Shown one piece after another: positions 1 to 10,363 of a DNA stretch of 64,000 nucleotides. The position numbers and the translations under genes were made by a program. Source of the stretch: Microcystaceae cyanobacterium. GTDB taxonomy: Bacteria; Cyanobacteriota; Cyanobacteriia; Cyanobacteriales; Microcystaceae. The DNA lies in NCBI GenBank assembly GCA_041746575.1, contig JBGTGT010000098.1:1-64000 (forward strand), read 5' to 3'. Position 1 is the stretch's first letter. The number at the start of each line of letters is the position of its first letter. A model generated the notes under the pieces. That model searched no databases, had not been told where the DNA came from, and saw nothing but the letters and a program-made list of their open reading frames with translations.

Positions 1-140
1 CCGAATCTATGGGCAATTACAAGGGATTTAGCCATTAATCTGTACCGAGAAGCGGGTTTTACGAATATGGCGCAAGCACAACGATTATGCAGTTATGGAC
101 TAAAGCAGATTTTGGTACTTTTTAGAATGAAATAGCCCTG
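1..140 (+). mobile_element. 3' end of an ISAs1-family insertion sequence (transposase C-terminus 1..135 plus terminal repeat ending CCCTG)
   Basis: Frame 1 reads PNLWAITRDLAINLYREAGFTNMAQAQRLCSYGLKQILVLFRMK*, resembling cyanobacterial ISAs1 transposase C-termini. The stop is followed directly by CCCTG, the reverse complement of the CAGGG ISAs1 terminus. Confidence 0.75.
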
Positions 141-148
141 ACAAGATA

Positions 149-1852
149 GTGAGCAATGAATATATAGTAAAGTTGTTAGGGGAAATAATTGAGGATATTG
201 AGTGTGTTGTCTTAAATGCTTGCGATACTATTAATTTAGCTAAAGAATTGCACAAAAGAATCAATTATGTCATTGGGATGAATCGAGCGATTAAAGATCA
301 ATCAGCGATCGCCTTCTCTGAAGGATTCTATGATGGAATTGGAGCAGATTTGCCCTTTGAAAAATCGTTTAAAATGGGAAAATTGGCAATTTTGGCAATG
401 GTAGAGCGTCAAGATACACAAGGACGAAAATTTATCTTAGCGGATGATCAGAAGAAAATTATTGACCAACAAGGAAATGAGGTTCAAGATATAGAGTATC
501 ATATTCCTGTTTTATTTAAAAATACTATAGTAGAAACCTCCAAGGCAGCGGGATATTTATCGAATTTACAAGAAATCCTTTTAGAAGGATATGAAGATGA
601 TTTAAAAGAAGAAATTGAGGAATCTTATCAAATTGTTCTAGGGGAATTAAGAGCAAATAATCGAATTATTGAATCTTTAAAAGGAATGTCTGAATCAATT
701 TTGGAAGAAATGATTTGGCAATTCTATGAACAAAAGCCAGTTGATTTAGGGGAAAATTTACAACAAATCTCATGTTTACAATTGTTTATGGCTTTTTTTG
801 TTGTTATTCTCCAGCAGAAAAAGCAACGTAAAAGTTATCGACAAACTTTAAAAAAGTGGCTGAAAAAAGATGCAAAGGATTTAAGCAAAGTTTTAATAGC
901 AGTGGTTGAGCAGAGATTTAGTCAGGCAAATCAATCGTCACGAGTCTTAGATGAACCTTTGCAAGTCTTATTATTAGTGGTGACAGAAATACAGCAAGAA
1001 TTTAAACTAGATGCTTGGTTAATTAAAGATATTAAAAAGTACCAATCTATGACCGATCAAGACGAAGCATCAATCCTCTGTCAAAAATTAACAGACAAGG
1101 AAATGCTTAATTTAGGTAAACCCTTAAATCTGGAAATACTAAAAGATTTTATTTTAAAATACAAGTTCCATTCATTCAAGCAAATAAAAATATTTTTACC
1201 CTATCAAGTTATTGCCAACATAGAAAAGGAAACAAAAACGATAGATTTGTTGGAAACTCCAACCGCAATATCAAGACTTTCTCCTGTTCCTTTAGGAAGG
1301 GATTACGAAATTGTCTTAGGGATTTCAGAGCGATTATCTGATAATGAACAGCATAAAAGATGGCTAGAAAAATACAAAATGTTAATTCCTATTCAAGAAA
1401 AATCAATAAGGCAATACATTATTTCTGAATCTGAATTACAACAGAAAATGGAAGCGGGGGAATTATCGCGTAGAACCCCCTTTGTCTTGTGTAAAAAGTT
1501 AGAAGATTTTAATATTGATACTTTGTATAAATATCATAATTCAGTTGCAGTAATCGGTTCTCGATTAACCCATTTGTGTTTATGTAGCGATCATTTAGAA
1601 ACGATTTTACCAATCATCTATTATACTGGAGTCCCCTTAATGCTCTGGATTCGTTCCCATGCAGAGGAAACTTTACATTCATCAGCAGATTTTGAGAACA
1701 TTTGTGATTGTCAATTTAAAGATTTACCTCGCATAATTAAAGCGCAACGGGAATCTGCTTATGGGATAACCTCCCATCTCGGCCATCATTTATCATTAAT
1801 CTTAGATGATGCGAACTTACTGCCACCTCCCTATAGATTAAGGATGGCCTAG
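149..1852 (+). pseudogene. CHAT (caspase-like)-domain / VMAP-C protein of a vWA-MoxR ternary system, probably 5'-truncated by the IS
   Basis: ECVVLNAC..YVIGMN..AIAFSEGFY is the second half of a CHAT domain; the upstream His-containing motif is absent. The C-terminal GVPLMLWIR...LGHHLSLILDDANLLPP resembles VMAP-C. The open frame begins at the IS boundary. Confidence 0.7.
305..312. repeat. HIP1 octamer GCGATCGC (one of many, e.g. 11856, 18574, 19502, 31804, 58741)
   Basis: Recurrent GCGATCGC palindrome in AT-rich DNA, the cyanobacterial HIP1 signature. Confidence 0.9.
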
Positions 1853-1980: not shown

Positions 1981-3003
1981 ATGACTGATGCTCAATGGCA
2001 AATTTTTACGGGAGAACCGAAGAAAACAGGTGATGCTCCACCGAAACTCCCTTCTGCACCGAGTTGGCGTTCTTTTGGGAAAAGTCGTCGTCAATCGAAG
2101 GGAGAAAAATTTCAAATTATTGATGATACGCAAATAAAAATGGTGAATGCGGCGTTATATTTACGTCGTCCTTTATTGGTCACAGGAAAACCGGGAACGG
2201 GAAAATCTTCAATTGCTTACAAAGTGGCGGAAGAACTCGAATTAGGAGAAGTCTTATACTGGCCGATTACAACTCGGACGACCTTAAAAGATGGACTATA
2301 CAATTATGATGCCATTGGTCGTTTACAGGAAGTAAAATTTAGAGAACAAGTTGAAGGGAAATTAACCCAAAAACAACAACAAGAACAATTAAAACAGATT
2401 GGCAAATATATCACACTGGGTCCCCTTGGAACAGCATTATTAAAGTCTAAAAAACCAAGGGTATTATTAATTGATGAAATTGATAAAAGTGATATTGATT
2501 TACCCAATGATTTGTTAACATTGTTTGAGGAGGGATTTTTTGAAATTCCTGAATTAGAGAGAATCAAAGAGGAAGTGGGAGAAGTAAGGGTAAGAACGGC
2601 GTATAAAGATGAAAATAATGAAACAACGGGAAAAGATCGAGAATTTCCAATTGAAGAAGGTTTAGTGTCTTGTGAAGAGTTCCCTTTTGTTATTTTAACC
2701 AGTAATGGAGAAAGGGATTTTCCGCCGCCATTTTTGCGTCGTTGTTTGCGTTTAACGATGAAACCGCCCAATGAAGATGAATTAAAGCGAATTATCACAG
2801 CGCACTTAGAAGAAGAGATTACTTTAAGGGAAGATGTTAAAAAATTGATTAAAGCTTTTCTGGGAAAACGAGATAAAGAAACGTTGGCAACTGATCAATT
2901 ATTAAATGCGCTTTTTTTAGTAAAAGAAGGTAAAATTCCCACTGATGAAAAGTTAATCGACTTAATTCTCAAAGATTTGGGGGCAATCGAAGATGACCTC
3001 TAA
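1981..3003 (+). CDS. MoxR-family AAA+ ATPase (ternary conflict-system type)
   Basis: Walker A GKPGTGKS, Walker B VLLIDEIDK, SDIDLPNDLL and TSNGERDFPPPFLRRC. Confidence 0.9.
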   Translation: MTDAQWQIFTGEPKKTGDAPPKLPSAPSWRSFGKSRRQSKGEKFQIIDDTQIKMVNAALYLRRPLLVTGKPGTGKSSIAYKVAEELELGEVLYWPITTRTTLKDGLYNYDAIGRLQEVKFREQVEGKLTQKQQQEQLKQIGKYITLGPLGTALLKSKKPRVLLIDEIDKSDIDLPNDLLTLFEEGFFEIPELERIKEEVGEVRVRTAYKDENNETTGKDREFPIEEGLVSCEEFPFVILTSNGERDFPPPFLRRCLRLTMKPPNEDELKRIITAHLEEEITLREDVKKLIKAFLGKRDKETLATDQLLNALFLVKEGKIPTDEKLIDLILKDLGAIEDDL

Positions 3004-5917
3004 TGCGCATATAGACATTGATAAGCTATTAAAAGTCTTGAAGCGGACGGGATTACTTCAACGATGGAATGCAGATGAAGAAGATATTTTAGATAGTCTA
3101 TGGTTAGCCGTACAAATGGGGGATACTGAAGGGAAAAAATGGGTAAAGACGCAAAAGATAGTTATTGATCTCCTCAATATTGAAATTTTTATTACTTTCG
3201 CTTGGTTATATATTCAACTGACTTTACTGATTATTAAAGAAATTCCCCGATTATGGTGGTTAACCCCTAAACGCTCTGTTTCCCAGACTATTTCTGATCA
3301 GGTGGCAGTGATCACAGAAAATGTGTCAACCCCAGAAATAGGTAAATCAGCCTCAAATCAACCAAAAGGTTTACCTTTTCAAGTTCCTGCGGCCTCAGCG
3401 ATTCAAAATCCCCTTGTTTTGAGTCGTGCCTTACGAGGGTTAAGACGAAAAGTCCCCTCGATGACTAAAACCATGATAGATGAAACGGCAACGGCTGAAC
3501 GCATTGCGGAAAGGGAAATGTGGATTCCTGTAACGAAACCCCAACCCGAACGATGGTTAACCCTAGAATTGGTCATAGAAGATACGAGATCCAGCTTTAT
3601 TTGGCGAGAATTGATTAATGATTTACAAAAACTCTTAGAAGTACAAGGCGCATTTCAAAATATTAGGACATGGCAGCTTTTTACCCCCGATCATGAAACC
3701 TTAAAACTACGCCGTTATCGTCGCAAGGGAAAAACCAGTCAACGGGAATATTTCTGTCGAGAGTTGCTTCATCCTCAACAACGGGGATTAGTGTTGCTGG
3801 TGAGTGATTGTGTCTCCCCGTTATGGGAGTCAGGATTAATTCATCCTTATCTTCAAAAATGGTCAGAGAAACAACCCTGCGCTATCCTACAGCTTTTTCC
3901 CGAAAGATTATGGAATAGTACGCAATTAACACGAGGAACGAAATATACCGCTATTTCAGACCGTCCAGCAGTGCCTAACCCTAAATTAACCTTAATTAAT
4001 CATCCGCAATGGTTGCCGATAGATTGGAATGATTCTGTGTTAGTACCCATTATTACCTTACAACCGTTCGTCCTTAAGCAATGGAGTGGTGTGATTGCTG
4101 GAAATGGAAAAGGACAAGTCACTTCTATCCTGTTCAATCTATCCTTTATTAAAGAAAAAGCACAAGAGAAAGAAAAAGACAATTCTGTAAAAGCAACTGA
4201 AAATTCAGAATCTGAACTGAAAACCGATGAAGTAACCGAAAAAGCTAATGCAATTGTCCAACAATTCTTTAACAATGCTTCCGAGAATGCGATTGAATTA
4301 GCCACAGTGATGGCAACCCTTCCCGTCAATATGTCGGTGGTTGACCTTGTGAGAAAGAGCTATCAAGGGGAAATGACCACAGAACCTGTTCATGTGGCAG
4401 AATTTTATATGGGAGGATTATTAACGCCGATTGGAGAAAACAAAGAGGGATACGATCAAGGGTATGACTTTGTGACAGGGGTGCGTCGGGTACTGAATAA
4501 AAGCATTAGTTCACGGCGCAATATCCGCATATTAGACCGAATTTCTGAGCAAATCGGCAAGGAAATTGATCGTCCGATTCGCAGTTTTAGAGGGCTTCTG
4601 GTTTATTTAGAAGACTATCCCGAAGATCAAGAAAAAGTGTTACCCTTTGCTCAAGTCGGGTTAGAAGTCCTGAAAAATCTGGGGGGAGATTTTGCGACCT
4701 ACGCTGAAGAAATAGAAAATAGACTTAAACCTTTAACACAACCGAATGAAAATGATAATATTAACCTAAAAATCGCTACTTTTGAGGTAGCAACGATAGA
4801 AGTCATCGAAACGCAGATATTTACCTTTACGGTGGCAACGCTACAATATCATTCCTCTAGTCGTTCTCTCCGTTCGACAAGAAAAAGACGATGGGAGATA
4901 AAACACCAAGAAAAACAAGCAGAAGGCATGATAGAAGCCTTAGATGACCAAGTTAACCTAGAATTAATGGAAATCCCCTCTGGAACATTTGTGATGGGGA
5001 CACCCGACGAAGAAATTGAAAGATTGGTGAAAAAGTTTAATTGGGACTATTTTAGAAGGGAAAAAGGGCAACATCTTGTAACTGTTCCCGCTTTCTATAT
5101 GGGGCGTTATCCCATCACCCAAGCACAATGGCGTATTATTGCTGAAGATACATCATTAAGGGTAGCAAGGGATCTCAACCCTGACCCATCAAGCTTTAAA
5201 GAAGACTATGAAGGAATAGATAGATGGCAAAGACCCGTAGAAAGCGTATCATGGTATGATGCCATTGAGTTTTGTGCCAGATTAAGTAAAAAAACAGGCA
5301 GAAATTATCGATTAGCCACCGAAGCAGAATGGGAATACGCTTGTAGAAGTCGGAAGTTGGAAGTCGGAAGTCGGAAGGAAGCAAACAATGTAAATGTAGG
5401 GGAGCAAGGTTTGCGCCCAAGTAGTAAAGCGTTAACGATAGAAGAATGGAATCGGAATTATCATCAACCGTTTCATTTTGGGGAAACCATCACAGGAGCG
5501 TTAGCGAATTATAATGTGACGTATCTATTTGCGGATGAAGAAAAAGGTACATATCGAGAACAGACAACCCCTGTGGGATATTTTAAGGTAGCCAATGAAT
5601 TTGGGTTGTATGATCTGCACGGCAATGTCTGGGAATGGTGTTTTGATCCTTGGCATGAGAGTTATGAAAGAGAAGATGTACCAAAAGATGGAACGGTATG
5701 GAATGAGAATAAGAATCAATATCAAGATGTTTTAATCAATACAAGTGAACTGCTTAAGAGTGTAGATCGTCGTGTAGTACGAGGTGGTTCTTGGTTCGTC
5801 TTTCCTTATCTTTGCCGTTCCGCCTACCGCGACTCTATCAATCCCGTTGTGGGCTACGATCTTCTCGGTTTTCGTGTTGTGTGCGCCTCCCCCAGCACTC
5901 TTTTGTACCAGAACTGA
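2993..5917 (+). CDS. SAV_2336-like vWA-type N-terminal domain plus C-terminal FGE-sulfatase (C-type lectin fold) domain; putative DGR target
   Basis: DSLWLA, IDETATAERIA, LVLLVSDCVSPLW and LQLFPERLW are typical of MoxR partner vWA proteins. RLATEAEWEYACR, FGLYDLHGNVWEWC and RGGSW...GFRVVC mark the FGE-sulfatase domain. Overlaps moxR by 11 nt. Confidence 0.85.
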   Translation: MTSNAHIDIDKLLKVLKRTGLLQRWNADEEDILDSLWLAVQMGDTEGKKWVKTQKIVIDLLNIEIFITFAWLYIQLTLLIIKEIPRLWWLTPKRSVSQTISDQVAVITENVSTPEIGKSASNQPKGLPFQVPAASAIQNPLVLSRALRGLRRKVPSMTKTMIDETATAERIAEREMWIPVTKPQPERWLTLELVIEDTRSSFIWRELINDLQKLLEVQGAFQNIRTWQLFTPDHETLKLRRYRRKGKTSQREYFCRELLHPQQRGLVLLVSDCVSPLWESGLIHPYLQKWSEKQPCAILQLFPERLWNSTQLTRGTKYTAISDRPAVPNPKLTLINHPQWLPIDWNDSVLVPIITLQPFVLKQWSGVIAGNGKGQVTSILFNLSFIKEKAQEKEKDNSVKATENSESELKTDEVTEKANAIVQQFFNNASENAIELATVMATLPVNMSVVDLVRKSYQGEMTTEPVHVAEFYMGGLLTPIGENKEGYDQGYDFVTGVRRVLNKSISSRRNIRILDRISEQIGKEIDRPIRSFRGLLVYLEDYPEDQEKVLPFAQVGLEVLKNLGGDFATYAEEIENRLKPLTQPNENDNINLKIATFEVATIEVIETQIFTFTVATLQYHSSSRSLRSTRKRRWEIKHQEKQAEGMIEALDDQVNLELMEIPSGTFVMGTPDEEIERLVKKFNWDYFRREKGQHLVTVPAFYMGRYPITQAQWRIIAEDTSLRVARDLNPDPSSFKEDYEGIDRWQRPVESVSWYDAIEFCARLSKKTGRNYRLATEAEWEYACRSRKLEVGSRKEANNVNVGEQGLRPSSKALTIEEWNRNYHQPFHFGETITGALANYNVTYLFADEEKGTYREQTTPVGYFKVANEFGLYDLHGNVWEWCFDPWHESYEREDVPKDGTVWNENKNQYQDVLINTSELLKSVDRRVVRGGSWFVFPYLCRSAYRDSINPVVGYDLLGFRVVCASPSTLLYQN
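5345..5418 (+). repeat. In-frame GGAAGTC heptamer array (5345-5377) and GTAG-REP-like palindrome (5396-5418) inside the FGE domain
   Basis: GTAGGGGAGCAAGGTTTGCGCCC closely matches the REPs flanking the RAYT gene at about 38-39.8 kb. Confidence 0.7.
5783..5896 (+). repeat. DGR-type variable region VR1
   Basis: 114-nt ungapped match to 7968-8081 with 21 differences, 19 of them at codon positions 1-2; invariant positions are nearly adenine-free. Confidence 0.85.
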
Positions 5918-6040
5918 CAAATGGGAATTTGTCGGGTGCGTCAAGGAAGAGTCCAGTTTGCTCCTGTGATGCTAATCGTATCCGAAAATAACCCGAAGTC
6001 AGTTAGCCTAGTAGGGAAACCAAACCGTTAGCTGGCTTCA
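5897..6040 (+). ncRNA. Putative structured RNA element directly 3' of VR1 (resembles DGR template-side spacer RNA)
   Basis: Stems: 5914-5935 (GGGA loop); 5897-5902 with 5947-5952; 5968-5982; and a 13-bp stem 5995-6007 with 6027-6039 enclosing GG-GAAA-CC. Mismatches are G-U on the + strand. Confidence 0.55.
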
Positions 6041-6048
6041 TCCTCAAA

Positions 6049-6111
6049 ATGGTTAAATTAATTATCCGAAAACGACAACGACAGGCACAGTCTTATTATC
6101 AGAAGTCTTGA
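6049..6111 (+). pseudogene. 20-codon stub duplicating the 5' end of the FGE gene at 7065
   Basis: MVKLIIRKRQRQAQSYY versus MVKILIRKRQRQAHYY; 26 nt identical (6064-6089 = 7080-7105). Confidence 0.75.
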
Positions 6112-6195
6112 CAAGTAACTTCGCAATTTGCTAAGATATAAATGTCCAATAATCTAGAGGAAGTAAAACAAGGATTGATAAAAAAATAATAACCT

Positions 6196-6495
6196 ATGCA
6201 CGTTATATCACAGTCCACCTTGAAAAAATTCTGGAAAATTCACCCAGAAGCAGAAGTTGGGTTACGCTATTGGTATAAGCTTACTGTGCAACATCAGTGG
6301 CGACATTTAGAGGATGTAAGAAATACATTTCCCTCAATTGATCGAGTTGGTAACTTTACTGTCTTCAATATTTCTGGTAATCACTATAGACTGATTACCT
6401 ATATCGACTGCCAAAACCAAAAAGTTTTTATCAGAGCGGTATTAACCCATGCTGAGTATGATAAAAATAAGTGGAAAAAGGATAGCTGGTATTAG
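6196..6495 (+). CDS. higB: Type II toxin, HigB family
   Basis: MHVIS..LKKFW..HP, VFNISGNHYRLI and VLTHAEYDK motifs; toxin-first gene order. Confidence 0.9.
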   Translation: MHVISQSTLKKFWKIHPEAEVGLRYWYKLTVQHQWRHLEDVRNTFPSIDRVGNFTVFNISGNHYRLITYIDCQNQKVFIRAVLTHAEYDKNKWKKDSWY

Positions 6496-6599
6496 TAAAT
6501 AAATTATACATTAACCCCTTAAGTTAAACTGTTAATTTAATTAAATCAAACTTGTCCACTTTTACTTAACTCTAGATTTTTAGAATTTTTTTTAAGGCT

Positions 6600-7001
6600 A
6601 TGCTAATTCAAGACCATTATACCCAATTATTACAGCAATTTCCACCTCGTCTTATTAAGTCAGATAAAGAGTTAGAAATCATGCAAGAAAGAGTTTATTC
6701 TTTTCTAGATAAACCTGAATTGATGCCAGATGAACAGGATTATTTGGATCTATTGGGTACATTAATTTATCAATATGAACAAACTCAAGACCTTATTCCT
6801 GATATTTATGGAGTAGAATTGTTAAAAGTTTTGATTGAAGAAAGAGGGCTAAAACAGAAAGACCTTGTTCCTGTTTTTAAAACTGAATCTATTGTTTCTG
6901 ATGTTCTCAATGGCAAACGAGACTTAAATAAGAAACATATTCAAAGATTAGCTAATTTTTTCAATCTATCTCCTGCTGTTTTTTTCCCTAAAGTTAATTA
7001 G
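6600..7001 (+). CDS. higA: Type II antitoxin, HigA family (Cro/C1 HTH)
   Basis: YLDLLGTLIYQYE and GLKQKDLVPVFKTESIVSDVLNGKR (HTH); lies downstream of higB. Confidence 0.9.
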   Translation: MLIQDHYTQLLQQFPPRLIKSDKELEIMQERVYSFLDKPELMPDEQDYLDLLGTLIYQYEQTQDLIPDIYGVELLKVLIEERGLKQKDLVPVFKTESIVSDVLNGKRDLNKKHIQRLANFFNLSPAVFFPKVN

Positions 7002-7064
7002 TTAGAACATAATCTAGTTTAGATTTGATTAAATCTTGGGTAATTTGTTCTTATCAATTCCAAA

Positions 7065-8087
7065 ATGGTAAAAATCCTGATCCGAAAACGACAACGACAG
7101 GCACATTATTACACCGAGACATTAGGTAATGGTGTCACCCTCGATATGATGCAAATCCCTTCTGGGATGTTTTGCATGGGAACGCCTTTAGCAGAAATTG
7201 AACGATTGTGTCAAGTGTATGGAGAGGAATGGTTTAGGGCAGAACACCCTCAACATTTGGTTACTGTTCCCTCTTTTTTTATGGGAAAAACCCCTATTAC
7301 ACAAGCCCAATGGCAAGCGATTTGTGAAGCAGATGCGGATTTAAGCATAGCTAAGGATCTGAAACCCGACCCATCATCTTTTAAAGAAGACTATAAAGAA
7401 ATAAATCGATGGCAAAGACCCGTAGAAAGTGTATCTTGGTATGATGCTCTCAAATTTTGTGCAAAGCTATCGAAAATAACAAAAAGAAATTACCGACTAC
7501 CTACCGAAGCCGAATGGGAATACGCTTGTCGCGCTGCTCCAATTCAAAATTTAGGGGAGCAGAATTTAAATTCAAGTGACGAAAAGTTATTAATAGAAGA
7601 ATGGAATCAGAATCGCTATCAACTATTTCATTTTGGCGAAACCCTATCAACAGATGTGGCAAACTACAGGGGAACAGATTGGGAATATGAAGGAAAAACC
7701 TATCCCAGTAACTTTGGAAGAGGGTTAAAAGGTACATATCGAAAACAGACAACCCCTGTGGGCTATTTTAAGGTAGCCAATGAATTTGGGTTGTACGATA
7801 TGCACGGAAATGTCTGGGAATGGTGTTTAGACTCGTGGCATGAGAATTATGAAAGAGAAGATGTACCAACAGACGGAACGGTATGGAATGAGAATAAGAA
7901 TCATTATCAAGATATTTTAGCTAATATAGATGAACTTCTCAGCATCAGTAGCTCTCATGTAATACGGGGTGGTTCTTGGTACTACCTTCCTAATCGATGC
8001 CGTTCCGCCTACCGCAACTATTACCTTCCCGATGTGGTCAACTTTAATCTCGGATTTCGTGTTGTGTGCGCCTCCCCCAGCCCTTAG
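7065..8087 (+). CDS. Stand-alone FGE-sulfatase (C-type lectin fold) protein; putative second DGR target
   Basis: RLPTEAEWEYACR, FGLYDMHGNVWEWC and RGGSW...GFRVVC; a close paralog of the C-terminus of the 2993-5917 gene. Confidence 0.9.
   Translation: MVKILIRKRQRQAHYYTETLGNGVTLDMMQIPSGMFCMGTPLAEIERLCQVYGEEWFRAEHPQHLVTVPSFFMGKTPITQAQWQAICEADADLSIAKDLKPDPSSFKEDYKEINRWQRPVESVSWYDALKFCAKLSKITKRNYRLPTEAEWEYACRAAPIQNLGEQNLNSSDEKLLIEEWNQNRYQLFHFGETLSTDVANYRGTDWEYEGKTYPSNFGRGLKGTYRKQTTPVGYFKVANEFGLYDMHGNVWEWCLDSWHENYEREDVPTDGTVWNENKNHYQDILANIDELLSISSSHVIRGGSWYYLPNRCRSAYRNYYLPDVVNFNLGFRVVCASPSP
7968..8081 (+). repeat. DGR-type variable region VR2
   Basis: Matches VR1 as described there; retains several AAC/AAT codons. 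The last 27 nt are identical to VR1 (IMH-like). Confidence 0.85.
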
Positions 8088-9333: not shown

Positions 9334-10224
9334 ATGGCTATTTTTCACTTGGCGGAATTAACCCAATATCCTCAACTTATTTTCAATGGCATTGCCGTCG
9401 GTAGCATCATCGCTTTAGCCGCCGTTGGACTCACATTGACTTATGGCATTTTGCGTCTATCTAACTTTGCCCATGGGGATTTTATGACTTTGGGGGCGTA
9501 TTTTACTTGGTTAGCTAATACAAGCGGCTTAAATCTTTGGTTCTCAGTTATAATCGGTATGTTTGCAACAGTGTCCGCTATGGTAGTCTCAGAATATTTG
9601 CTTTGGAAACCCATGCGGAATCGTCGGGCAACCGCCACAACCTTAACGATTATCTCAATTGGACTTGCGCTATTTATTCGTAATGGTATTTTATTGATTT
9701 GGGGTGGAAATAACCGAAAATATGATATTCCTATTGTTCAAGCTCCAGAATTCTTCGGTATTCGAGTTCCTTATGACCGCTTACTGGTGATTAGCTTAAC
9801 GTTTTTGGTGATTATTGCGCTTCATTTTTTTCTACAAAATAGCAAAGTGGGTAAAGCGATGCGAGCAGTGGCGGATAATATAGATTTGGCAAGGGTTTCG
9901 GGAATTGATGTGGAGCGGGTGGTGTTATGGACGTGGCTCATTACTGGCATATTAACGGCTTTGGGGGGAGCAATGTTTGGACTAATTACCAATACCATTC
10001 GGCCTAATATGGGTTGGTTTTTAATTTTACCGATGTTTGCTGCCATTATTCTGGGGGGAATAGGCAATCCTTATGGCGCAATTGCGGGCGGATTAATCAT
10101 TGGAATTGTACAGGAAGTCAGTGTTCCTTGGTTGGGTTCAAACTATAAGTTAGGTGTTGCTTTATTGGTCATGATTCTAATTTTACTTCTACGCCCTCAA
10201 GGGTTATTTAAGGGCATGAGTTAG
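9334..10224 (+). CDS. natD: Neutral/branched-chain amino acid ABC transporter permease (LivH/NatD-like)
   Basis: GLTLTYGILRLSNFAHGD, GKAMRAVADN and ILGGIGNPYGA; multiple TM segments. Confidence 0.85.
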   Translation: MAIFHLAELTQYPQLIFNGIAVGSIIALAAVGLTLTYGILRLSNFAHGDFMTLGAYFTWLANTSGLNLWFSVIIGMFATVSAMVVSEYLLWKPMRNRRATATTLTIISIGLALFIRNGILLIWGGNNRKYDIPIVQAPEFFGIRVPYDRLLVISLTFLVIIALHFFLQNSKVGKAMRAVADNIDLARVSGIDVERVVLWTWLITGILTALGGAMFGLITNTIRPNMGWFLILPMFAAIILGGIGNPYGAIAGGLIIGIVQEVSVPWLGSNYKLGVALLVMILILLLRPQGLFKGMS

Positions 10225-10363
10225 GGAATAGAATTCTCACAAAAAAAGGTCACAAGCAGTCGCCTCGTTTAAGAATTTGCGAAAATAAAACAGAGGATAA
10301 CTATCTAGTATTCATCCACTGAATACACAATGGTTTTTTCAGGTATTGAAAATCTTAAAAATT

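Follow-up and report, generated by a model that had tools for sequence, protein, structure and literature searches.

Relic of a two-target diversity-generating retroelement in a Microcystaceae cyanobacterium, with a variable region apparently fused to the end of its template

A 64,000-nucleotide stretch of DNA from a Microcystaceae cyanobacterium (the window; positions 1 to 64,000 of contig JBGTGT010000098.1, GenBank assembly GCA_041746575.1, here genome G000) was found to hold what is, with a probability of about 0.85, the relic of a two-target cyanobacterial cassette of a diversity-generating retroelement (DGR). Its first variable region (VR1) is fused to the 3′ end of the template repeat (TR) and the spacer behind it, most likely by one deletion between VR1 and TR that removed avd, the reverse transcriptase (RT) gene and the template. 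The enzyme, helper gene and template of the system were missing, and both binding proteins are therefore likely to be frozen relics of an ordinary DGR. The features that carry this reading are:

5783..5896, + strand: VR1, the C-terminal tip of target gene 1
5897..6039, + strand: template RNA remnant, consisting of the TR 3′ end (IMH*) and a structured spacer, an element that follows an AAY-rich TR in 69 of 80 listed loci
7968..8081, + strand: VR2, the C-terminal tip of target gene 2, followed by a pyrimidine-rich VR-type flank

Mutation footprint of the two variable regions

VR1 and VR2 aligned without gaps over 114 nt (38 codons) and differed at 21 sites in 15 codons, nine at codon position 1, ten at position 2 and two at position 3. 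The residue was altered in 14 of the 15 variable codons and a third-base C or T was kept in 13; A made up 5 of the 93 identical bases, and the final 27 nt were identical. With VR1 or VR2 taken as template of the other copy, 9 and 17 non-A mismatches were counted, so neither fits. As a paralogue control, the same two target genes were compared upstream of the repeats over 285 aligned codons, where third positions took 104 of 248 differences and A made up 222 of 607 identical bases. The tips departed from the control in codon position (Fisher p = 0.004), nonsynonymous share (p = 0.04) and A depletion (p = 3e-11). Because the control showed many third-position differences and abundant identical A, the mutation pattern is specific to the gene tips.

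The variable sites were then placed on the TRs of 44 other organisms in exact register, in which A was the majority base at 17 of the 21 variable sites versus 8 of 65 invariant non-A sites. Variation at template adenines, a hallmark of DGRs, was thus found by way of relatives' TRs, the locus's own TR being missing. VR1 was mutated as far as repeat position 87. An earlier note on this DNA had reported the same counts (including 19 differences at codon positions 1 and 2), all of which were reproduced, together with its statement that neither copy can be derived from the other by A-only changes. Its proposals that both tips had been rewritten from a third, A-rich DGR template and that they are C-terminal tips of C-type-lectin (CLec)/FGE-fold genes were likewise borne out, the former by the mapping of variable sites to adenines of relatives' TRs and the latter by PF03781 matches to both genes and a match to TvpA.

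Template end and spacer behind VR1

The DNA behind VR1 resembled the flank that follows relatives' TRs, not VRs. A query with window positions 5870–6060 gave matches in 43 of 301 genomes of the order, G000 included. Among 34 placements in 36 examined loci, an AAY-rich TR lay upstream in most; the exceptions were a VR in three (the window, G047 and G050), a half-converted TR in one (G062) and a truncated repeat in three. For an alignment of 17 such tails RNAalifold gave five helices, and 26 of their 38 pairs showed two-sided changes. None of 500 shuffles reached 26 of 38 and slid controls gave 8–12, the structure having been derived from the same alignment so that the control leans towards it. 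Single-sequence folding of the tail was weak (z −1.72), which leaves the alignment as the support for the structure, and a search of the tail against Rfam gave no relevant match (one irrelevant, E 3.3). A 9-bp GNRA hairpin was predicted at 5914–5935, with further predicted hairpins up to 6039.

In the DGR RNA of BPP-1 the spacer lies just 3′ of TR and contains a 9-bp tetraloop hairpin, a TR:spacer duplex and a stop duplex with TR-upstream sequence, and GNRA loops are described as prevalent in Cyanobacteriota spacers (Handa et al., bioRxiv 10.1101/2023.10.23.563531). By analogy, the hairpin at 5914–5935 is predicted to be the Avd-binding element. Because relatives' TR flanks match, the tails co-fold and spacers of this kind are described by Handa et al., 5897–6039 reads, by comparison and predicted fold, as a TR end plus spacer RNA. 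The structured spacer downstream of TR, a further DGR hallmark, was found to the same extent. Compared with the BPP-1 spacer as described, that of the window differs in following a VR inside a coding gene, with its upstream partner strand lost, and the roles given to it are by analogy. The final residues and the stop codon of target gene 1 are read from the template tail.

Search for the missing template, RT and Avd

G000 comprises 4.2 Mb in 134 contigs and is 99.78% complete. Genome-wide BLAST and an adenine-tolerant scan with six sub-windows returned VR1 and VR2 only, which leaves a template elsewhere in G000 unsupported. Five other FGE matches in the genome had unrelated ends; a truncated piece of an FGE/CLec gene, close to the end of a contig (G000:C93:3387–3683, − strand), likewise had an unrelated tip. 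The sole RVT_1 match in G000 was a 1016-aa non-DGR protein on contig C104. DGR RT and Avd proteins of relatives gave nothing better than E 0.001 against G000 by tblastn, and the DGR RT of G005, used as query at 1e-20, had no match in G000 and matches in 19 of 61 genomes. The C104 RT was rejected as driver of the DGR, with no DGR likeness and a best tblastn E of 0.001. The C104 protein (L001 355–3405) carries weak N-terminal methyltransferase matches and a central RT domain, falls under the cut-off of all NCBIfam RT models and is possibly a defence-associated RT.

The Avd model NF033474 gave two matches in G000, of 25 and 22 bits against a cut-off of 80, and both were identified as 23S rRNA IVP four-helix proteins. 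These IVP genes lie at L206 and L207 (G000:C77 and C104) amid genes that by eye have a CRISPR-associated appearance.

The earlier note had stated that the window holds no template, avd or RT. This stands for a whole TR, avd and RT, but not for the 3′ end of the template RNA, which lies at 5897–6039. Of its two suggestions that the template is elsewhere in the genome or lost, the second is supported and the first is not, there being no TR, DGR RT or Avd above the cut-off in G000 and no TR-like contig in the four metagenome runs described below. The former position of the template at VR1 itself, its 3′ end and spacer RNA surviving in fusion, was missed, as was the VMAP-MoxR-vWA setting of the locus. 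An A-rich copy beside a DGR RT or avd, which the note had proposed to look for, was present in the intact cassettes of relatives, and BLAST of G000 found only the two VRs.

Metagenome contigs across the junction

Four hot-spring metagenome runs (X1–X4) from one study were searched, three of which are possibly the source of the G000 assembly. One 2213-bp contig spanned window positions 5581–7793 with 0 differences in X1–X3, at junction contig depths of 33.1, 12.3 and 34.1, equal to the flanks; X4 was without junction coverage. Pieces with 80% likeness to 5730–6130 were collected from X1–X4 and included no TR-like piece for the repeat and, in X1–X3 as elsewhere, no alternative VR allele, contigs being apt to drop rare variants, so that a rare intact subpopulation may exist. 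The other pieces were the VR2 contig, the start of target gene 2, and diverged short repeat-end/spacer pieces that are likely to come from other organisms.

These contigs bear on the possibility that the VR1/TR repeat was collapsed in assembly, or that the machinery sits on an unbinned replicon and acts in trans, which is hardly credible. G000 is a genome of many contigs from metagenome-type samples, trans activity has been described for related DGRs (PMC10907252), and a DGR RT was present elsewhere in three of the five other genomes with a collapsed locus. However, the perfect repeat is only 27 nt, the X1–X3 contigs cross the junction unbranched at flank depth, and neither a TR-like piece nor an alternative VR allele was seen in X1–X4. 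A 20-nt repeat-end pattern had 0 matches in viral contigs and one match in metagenome contigs, attributed to chance, which also speaks against supply in trans.

Reconstruction of the probable deletion

Six intact cassettes were used for comparison: G005:C29 (L068), G003:C407 (L209), G050:C125 (L069), G205:C27 (L071), G007:C67 (L065) and G034:C133 (L062). They share with the window the gene order on both sides, the spacer RNA (76–80% DNA identity in G003, G005 and G205) and a toxin-antitoxin (TA) pair in the slot behind it (G205 and G003); they differ in keeping about 1.7–2.0 kb of avd-RT-TR between VR1 and spacer. Relatives' genes run VR1-avd-RT-TR-spacer-second target, with VMAP and MoxR upstream in intact cassettes, and the distance from VR1 to TR in the six was 1710–1959 bp. 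Window positions 5779–6095 aligned with intact G005 as one 326-bp piece at 73%, running across TR, spacer and the start of target gene 2. Of the listed TR loci, 19 had a CLec gene directly downstream together with 1.5 kb or more of upstream DNA, and in 18 of these an RT lay upstream. The repeat-end base was mostly C or T in TRs and G in VRs, and VR1 has the TR base followed by a TR flank. Of 40 intact pairs, 29 had the 3′ block as their longest perfect VR/TR match (median 31 vs 22.5 nt), seven pairs having been skipped for indels or mismatches.

The ancestor would have been ordered VMAP – MoxR – vWA/CLec(VR1) – avd – RT – TR – spacer – (TA) – CLec(VR2). While it was intact, RT-Avd would have copied the TR RNA with errors at adenines, which is the established DGR mechanism, and so rewritten both lectin tips. 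Crossing over within the 3′ constant block, where VR and TR match perfectly over the longest stretch, would then have looped out ~1.7–2.0 kb while retaining the last VR1 allele. Because VR1 is mutated to repeat position 87 and is followed by the TR-type boundary base and flank, the crossover is placed at about 5870–5896, within the last ~27 bases. After the deletion both lectin tips would be fixed. VR1 would be hard to re-target, its VR-type end having been swapped for a TR end, which is not known to take cDNA.

The fused VR1-spacer would not be expected to serve as a new template, as the upstream strand of the cPRT-stop duplex would have been lost with the deletion. A stop-duplex partner of −9.1 kcal/mol or lower was found upstream in 69 of 69 listed TR loci, and the window reached −6.0. 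Since deletion of that strand in BPP-1 abolishes reverse transcription (bioRxiv 10.1101/2023.10.23.563531), template activity of VR1-spacer is, by analogy, unlikely.

Several points weigh against this reconstruction. The stop-duplex test is soft, as shuffled upstream sequence reaches −9 in 48 of 69 cases and so do 4 of 8 collapsed loci. At four variable sites out of 21 (repeat positions 30, 58, 71 and 87), A was not the majority base in relatives' TRs. G000 is a 134-contig assembly whose smallest contig is 1.5 kb, the metagenome runs share one study and three are perhaps the assembly source, and their contigs lose rare variants. No undeleted sister of the lineage was found in viral and metagenome contigs, same-genus genomes or the four runs, and the content and size of the deletion are taken from relatives only about 70–80% alike. 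Finally, a VR-TR arrangement with no RT between was seen in 14 of the 43 listed TR loci lacking a downstream target, including those of the same-genus genomes G001 and G002.

Because of this last layout the ancestor could have been of the RT-less VR-TR kind. Loss would then have taken two steps, starting from VR1-TR-spacer only (about 0.3–0.7 kb) with an RT elsewhere, followed by a short VR1 × TR deletion and separate loss of the RT. Such loci are common, with VR-TR distances of 275–827 bp; both same-genus genomes have them, and L155 and L135 had collapsed from an RT-less layout. This course of events is nevertheless quite improbable, as the RT was upstream in 18 of 19 listed loci with a second CLec gene behind the spacer, as in the window, and as avd-RT is found between VR1 and TR in six VMAP-type or two-target cassettes. 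The same-genus genomes carry, at L063 (about 9740–10340, G001) and L064 (about 5260–5890, G002), an NTPase-CLec gene with TR and spacer behind it and no intervening RT, and their CLec paralogues have at most 62% identity. A DGR RT was not found in G001 (92% complete), and the RT match in G002 contains one TGA.

Recurrence of the fusion in other genomes

With a spacer pattern able to recover 21 of 34 known tails, at least 119 stretches in the species collection were matched, and 80 loci were listed and classified. Automatic classes were corrected by eye for L119 (previously fused) and for L077, L111, L140, L145 and L154 (previously other). The 80 comprised 69 TR+spacer loci, 5 VR+spacer loci and 6 others (L078, L092, L107, L116, L127 and L134), so that among the 74 listed loci whose repeat could be recognised the fusion made up 5. 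Of these fused loci, three were in metagenome-assembled genomes, taken as assembled, and two in isolate genomes. One before/after pair was available: compared with L139, whose TR is intact, the fused VR of L155 differed at 13 of 13 TR adenines, with matching tails; the more distant pair L135/L129 gave 12 of 25. The exact collapsed layout of the window was found in G047, of another family, and a second G050 locus was also fused. A DGR RT was present elsewhere in three of the five fused-locus genomes, and also in G047 and G050.

A mutated VR was retained in 8 of 8 collapsed loci. This is what would be expected if the DGR had itself brought about the deletion, a cDNA with one anchor at the TR 3′ end and another at the 5′ part of VR1 bridging the repeats and excising its own machinery as a built-in lock. 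In all eight the VR is fully mutated as far as the 3′ block, and in none is the gene fused to an unmutated TR; the 3′ block holds 68% of 20-nt perfect windows, which gives 8 of 8 by chance at about 0.05. However, a minimum-homology threshold or selection against Asn-rich chimeras would give the same bias, adenine-free tracts common to TR and both VRs in G062 point to repeat exchange with no deletion, and self-excision is considered very improbable. A deletion by recombination between VR1 and TR is preferred.

Other decayed or rearranged forms were seen in the listed loci. At L073 7090–9923 (G062:C1) the 3′ half of the TR is free of adenines and near-identical in VR1, TR and VR2, with the RT gene open, whereas the TR is intact in G093 of the same genus; G062 may represent a partial lock by conversion of the template. 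L049, L050 and L052, in three genomes of one genus, have the spacer after a truncated, internally deleted repeat joined to CLec-like sequence and appear to be another decayed form. L092, L116 and L127 are orphan spacer RNAs with little or no template upstream. In L079 and L133, avd and RT are inverted relative to the target gene and TR.

Conflict-system locus and neighbouring genes

The genes around the relic are:

1..140, + strand: end of an insertion sequence (IS) inserted in the VMAP gene, the contig starting inside the IS
141..1852, + strand: VMAP gene 3′ part, with the rest of a CHAT/caspase-like domain, VMAP-M1 and VMAP-C (Pfam VMAP-C 2e-12, VMAP-M1 8e-6)
1981..3003, + strand: MoxR-like AAA+ ATPase (Pfam AAA_5, AAA, weak bpMoxR)
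2993..5917, + strand: target gene 1, SAV_2336-N (vWA-type component) fused to FGE/CLec, 974 aa (NF041121 4e-117; PF03781 5e-43)
6045..6095, + strand: stub with a second copy of the target gene 2 start (44 of 51 nt as in 7061–7111), bordering the TA pair
6196..7001, + strand: higB-higA-type TA pair in the slot that separates the spacer from target gene 2 (PF09907 2e-28, HTH_3)
7065..8087, + strand: target gene 2, stand-alone FGE/CLec protein, 340 aa (PF03781 2e-47)

The order VMAP (VMAP-C/M1), MoxR (AAA_5) and vWA component (NF041121) with C-terminal FGE is that of a ternary system, and by gene content the locus belongs with VMAP-MoxR-vWA ternary conflict systems linked to a DGR, a published kind. 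At the DNA level the MoxR gene matched its counterpart in an intact cassette at 66%. Compared with the target of the intact G050 cassette, target gene 1 was 38% and 44% identical, and it gave no Pfam match to the vWA fold itself. Target gene 2 matched TvpA (2y3c) at 5e-14, with its VR aligned to the TvpA C-terminus.

An intact VMAP with an N-terminal peptidase/adaptor domain was not found, the IS splitting the gene inside the CHAT-like domain. The first 81 codons probably lie across the IS on contig C28 (G000:C28:1–383, L211); the match of this 5′ piece to CHAT was 2e-4, below the cut-off. The IS, which we take to be ISAs1-like from its motifs, has 100% identical ends at five other contig ends, and a 9-bp direct repeat at 141–149, a target-site duplication, also borders the other IS end on C28. 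There are 14 matching ends of this IS family in G000, and since several are 100% identical the family looks recently active. The IS in VMAP suggests that the whole conflict locus is decaying.

The higBA pair lies between the 51-nt stub and the full target gene 2. The same slot holds HigB in the intact G205 cassette and a PIN gene in that of G003, and because TA genes fill the slot in these intact cassettes, the higBA insertion is likely to have been independent of the DGR collapse. Small toxin-antitoxin-type genes recur at this position (6045–7111; L071 2708–3407; L209 2943–3629; L210 1067–1693).

Comparison with published systems

VMAP ternary systems are reported to be DGR-associated in cyanobacteria (Kaur et al. 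2020, PMC7159879; Dore et al. 2024, clade 5E, PMC10907252), with a DGR link given for some 80% of such systems in cyanobacteria and gammaproteobacteria and a defence role proposed from genomics (PMC7159879; PMC10907252). As published, they share with the window VMAP, MoxR and a vWA component that carries a fused FGS/CLec domain whose C-terminus is a VR; the window differs in the loss of avd, RT and most of the TR, and in the splitting of VMAP by an IS. Dore et al. ascribe decay to transposons and miniature inverted-repeat transposable elements, and a VR × TR deletion is not described in the available part of that text (PMC10907252). Cyanobacterial remote variable proteins (Vallota-Eastman et al. 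2020, PMC7517822) are products of CLec genes that end in a VR-like sequence and have no RT close by, and removal of diversification components once a variant has been selected was suggested for them (PMC7517822). They were defined in that account in DGR-holding genomes; in G000 no DGR was found and a deletion scar is visible. Inactive DGRs are reported to be common (PMC5758913). The literature search, which left the supplements (Dore et al. SI Figs S4 and S11; Handa et al. Fig S18 and Table S3) outside its scope, returned no account of a VR × TR deletion leaving the spacer in cyanobacteria.

Implications

Every component of the locus is known, and the locus is a real, well-resolved DGR relic of a known kind; the reading of 5897–6039 as template remnant and deletion scar is the new part of the account. 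A 2026 model weighs loss of DGRs through decay of TR adenines or inactivation of RT (bioRxiv 10.64898/2026.02.18.706561, as given in its available part). Deletion between the repeats would be a further route of loss beside these two, at 5 of 74 listed loci.

It is rather unlikely that the VR1-avd-RT-TR layout is a built-in, irreversible off-switch, in which the DGR would have excised itself at the 3′ constant block in roughly 7% of listed cyanobacterial spacer loci, perhaps by way of its cDNA, and thereby fixed a sensor allele that had been selected. If the off-switch were true, the spacer RNA would be a countable scar, and it could be measured at genome scale how frequently bacterial 'antigen sensors' cease to diversify and in what habitats. 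The window locus gives the impression of a defence system in decay more than of a winner locked in. For the locus as reconstructed, one concrete and recurrent route of DGR death is shown, and the VR-spacer fusion offers a scar by which relics missed by RT-based DGR screens may be found.

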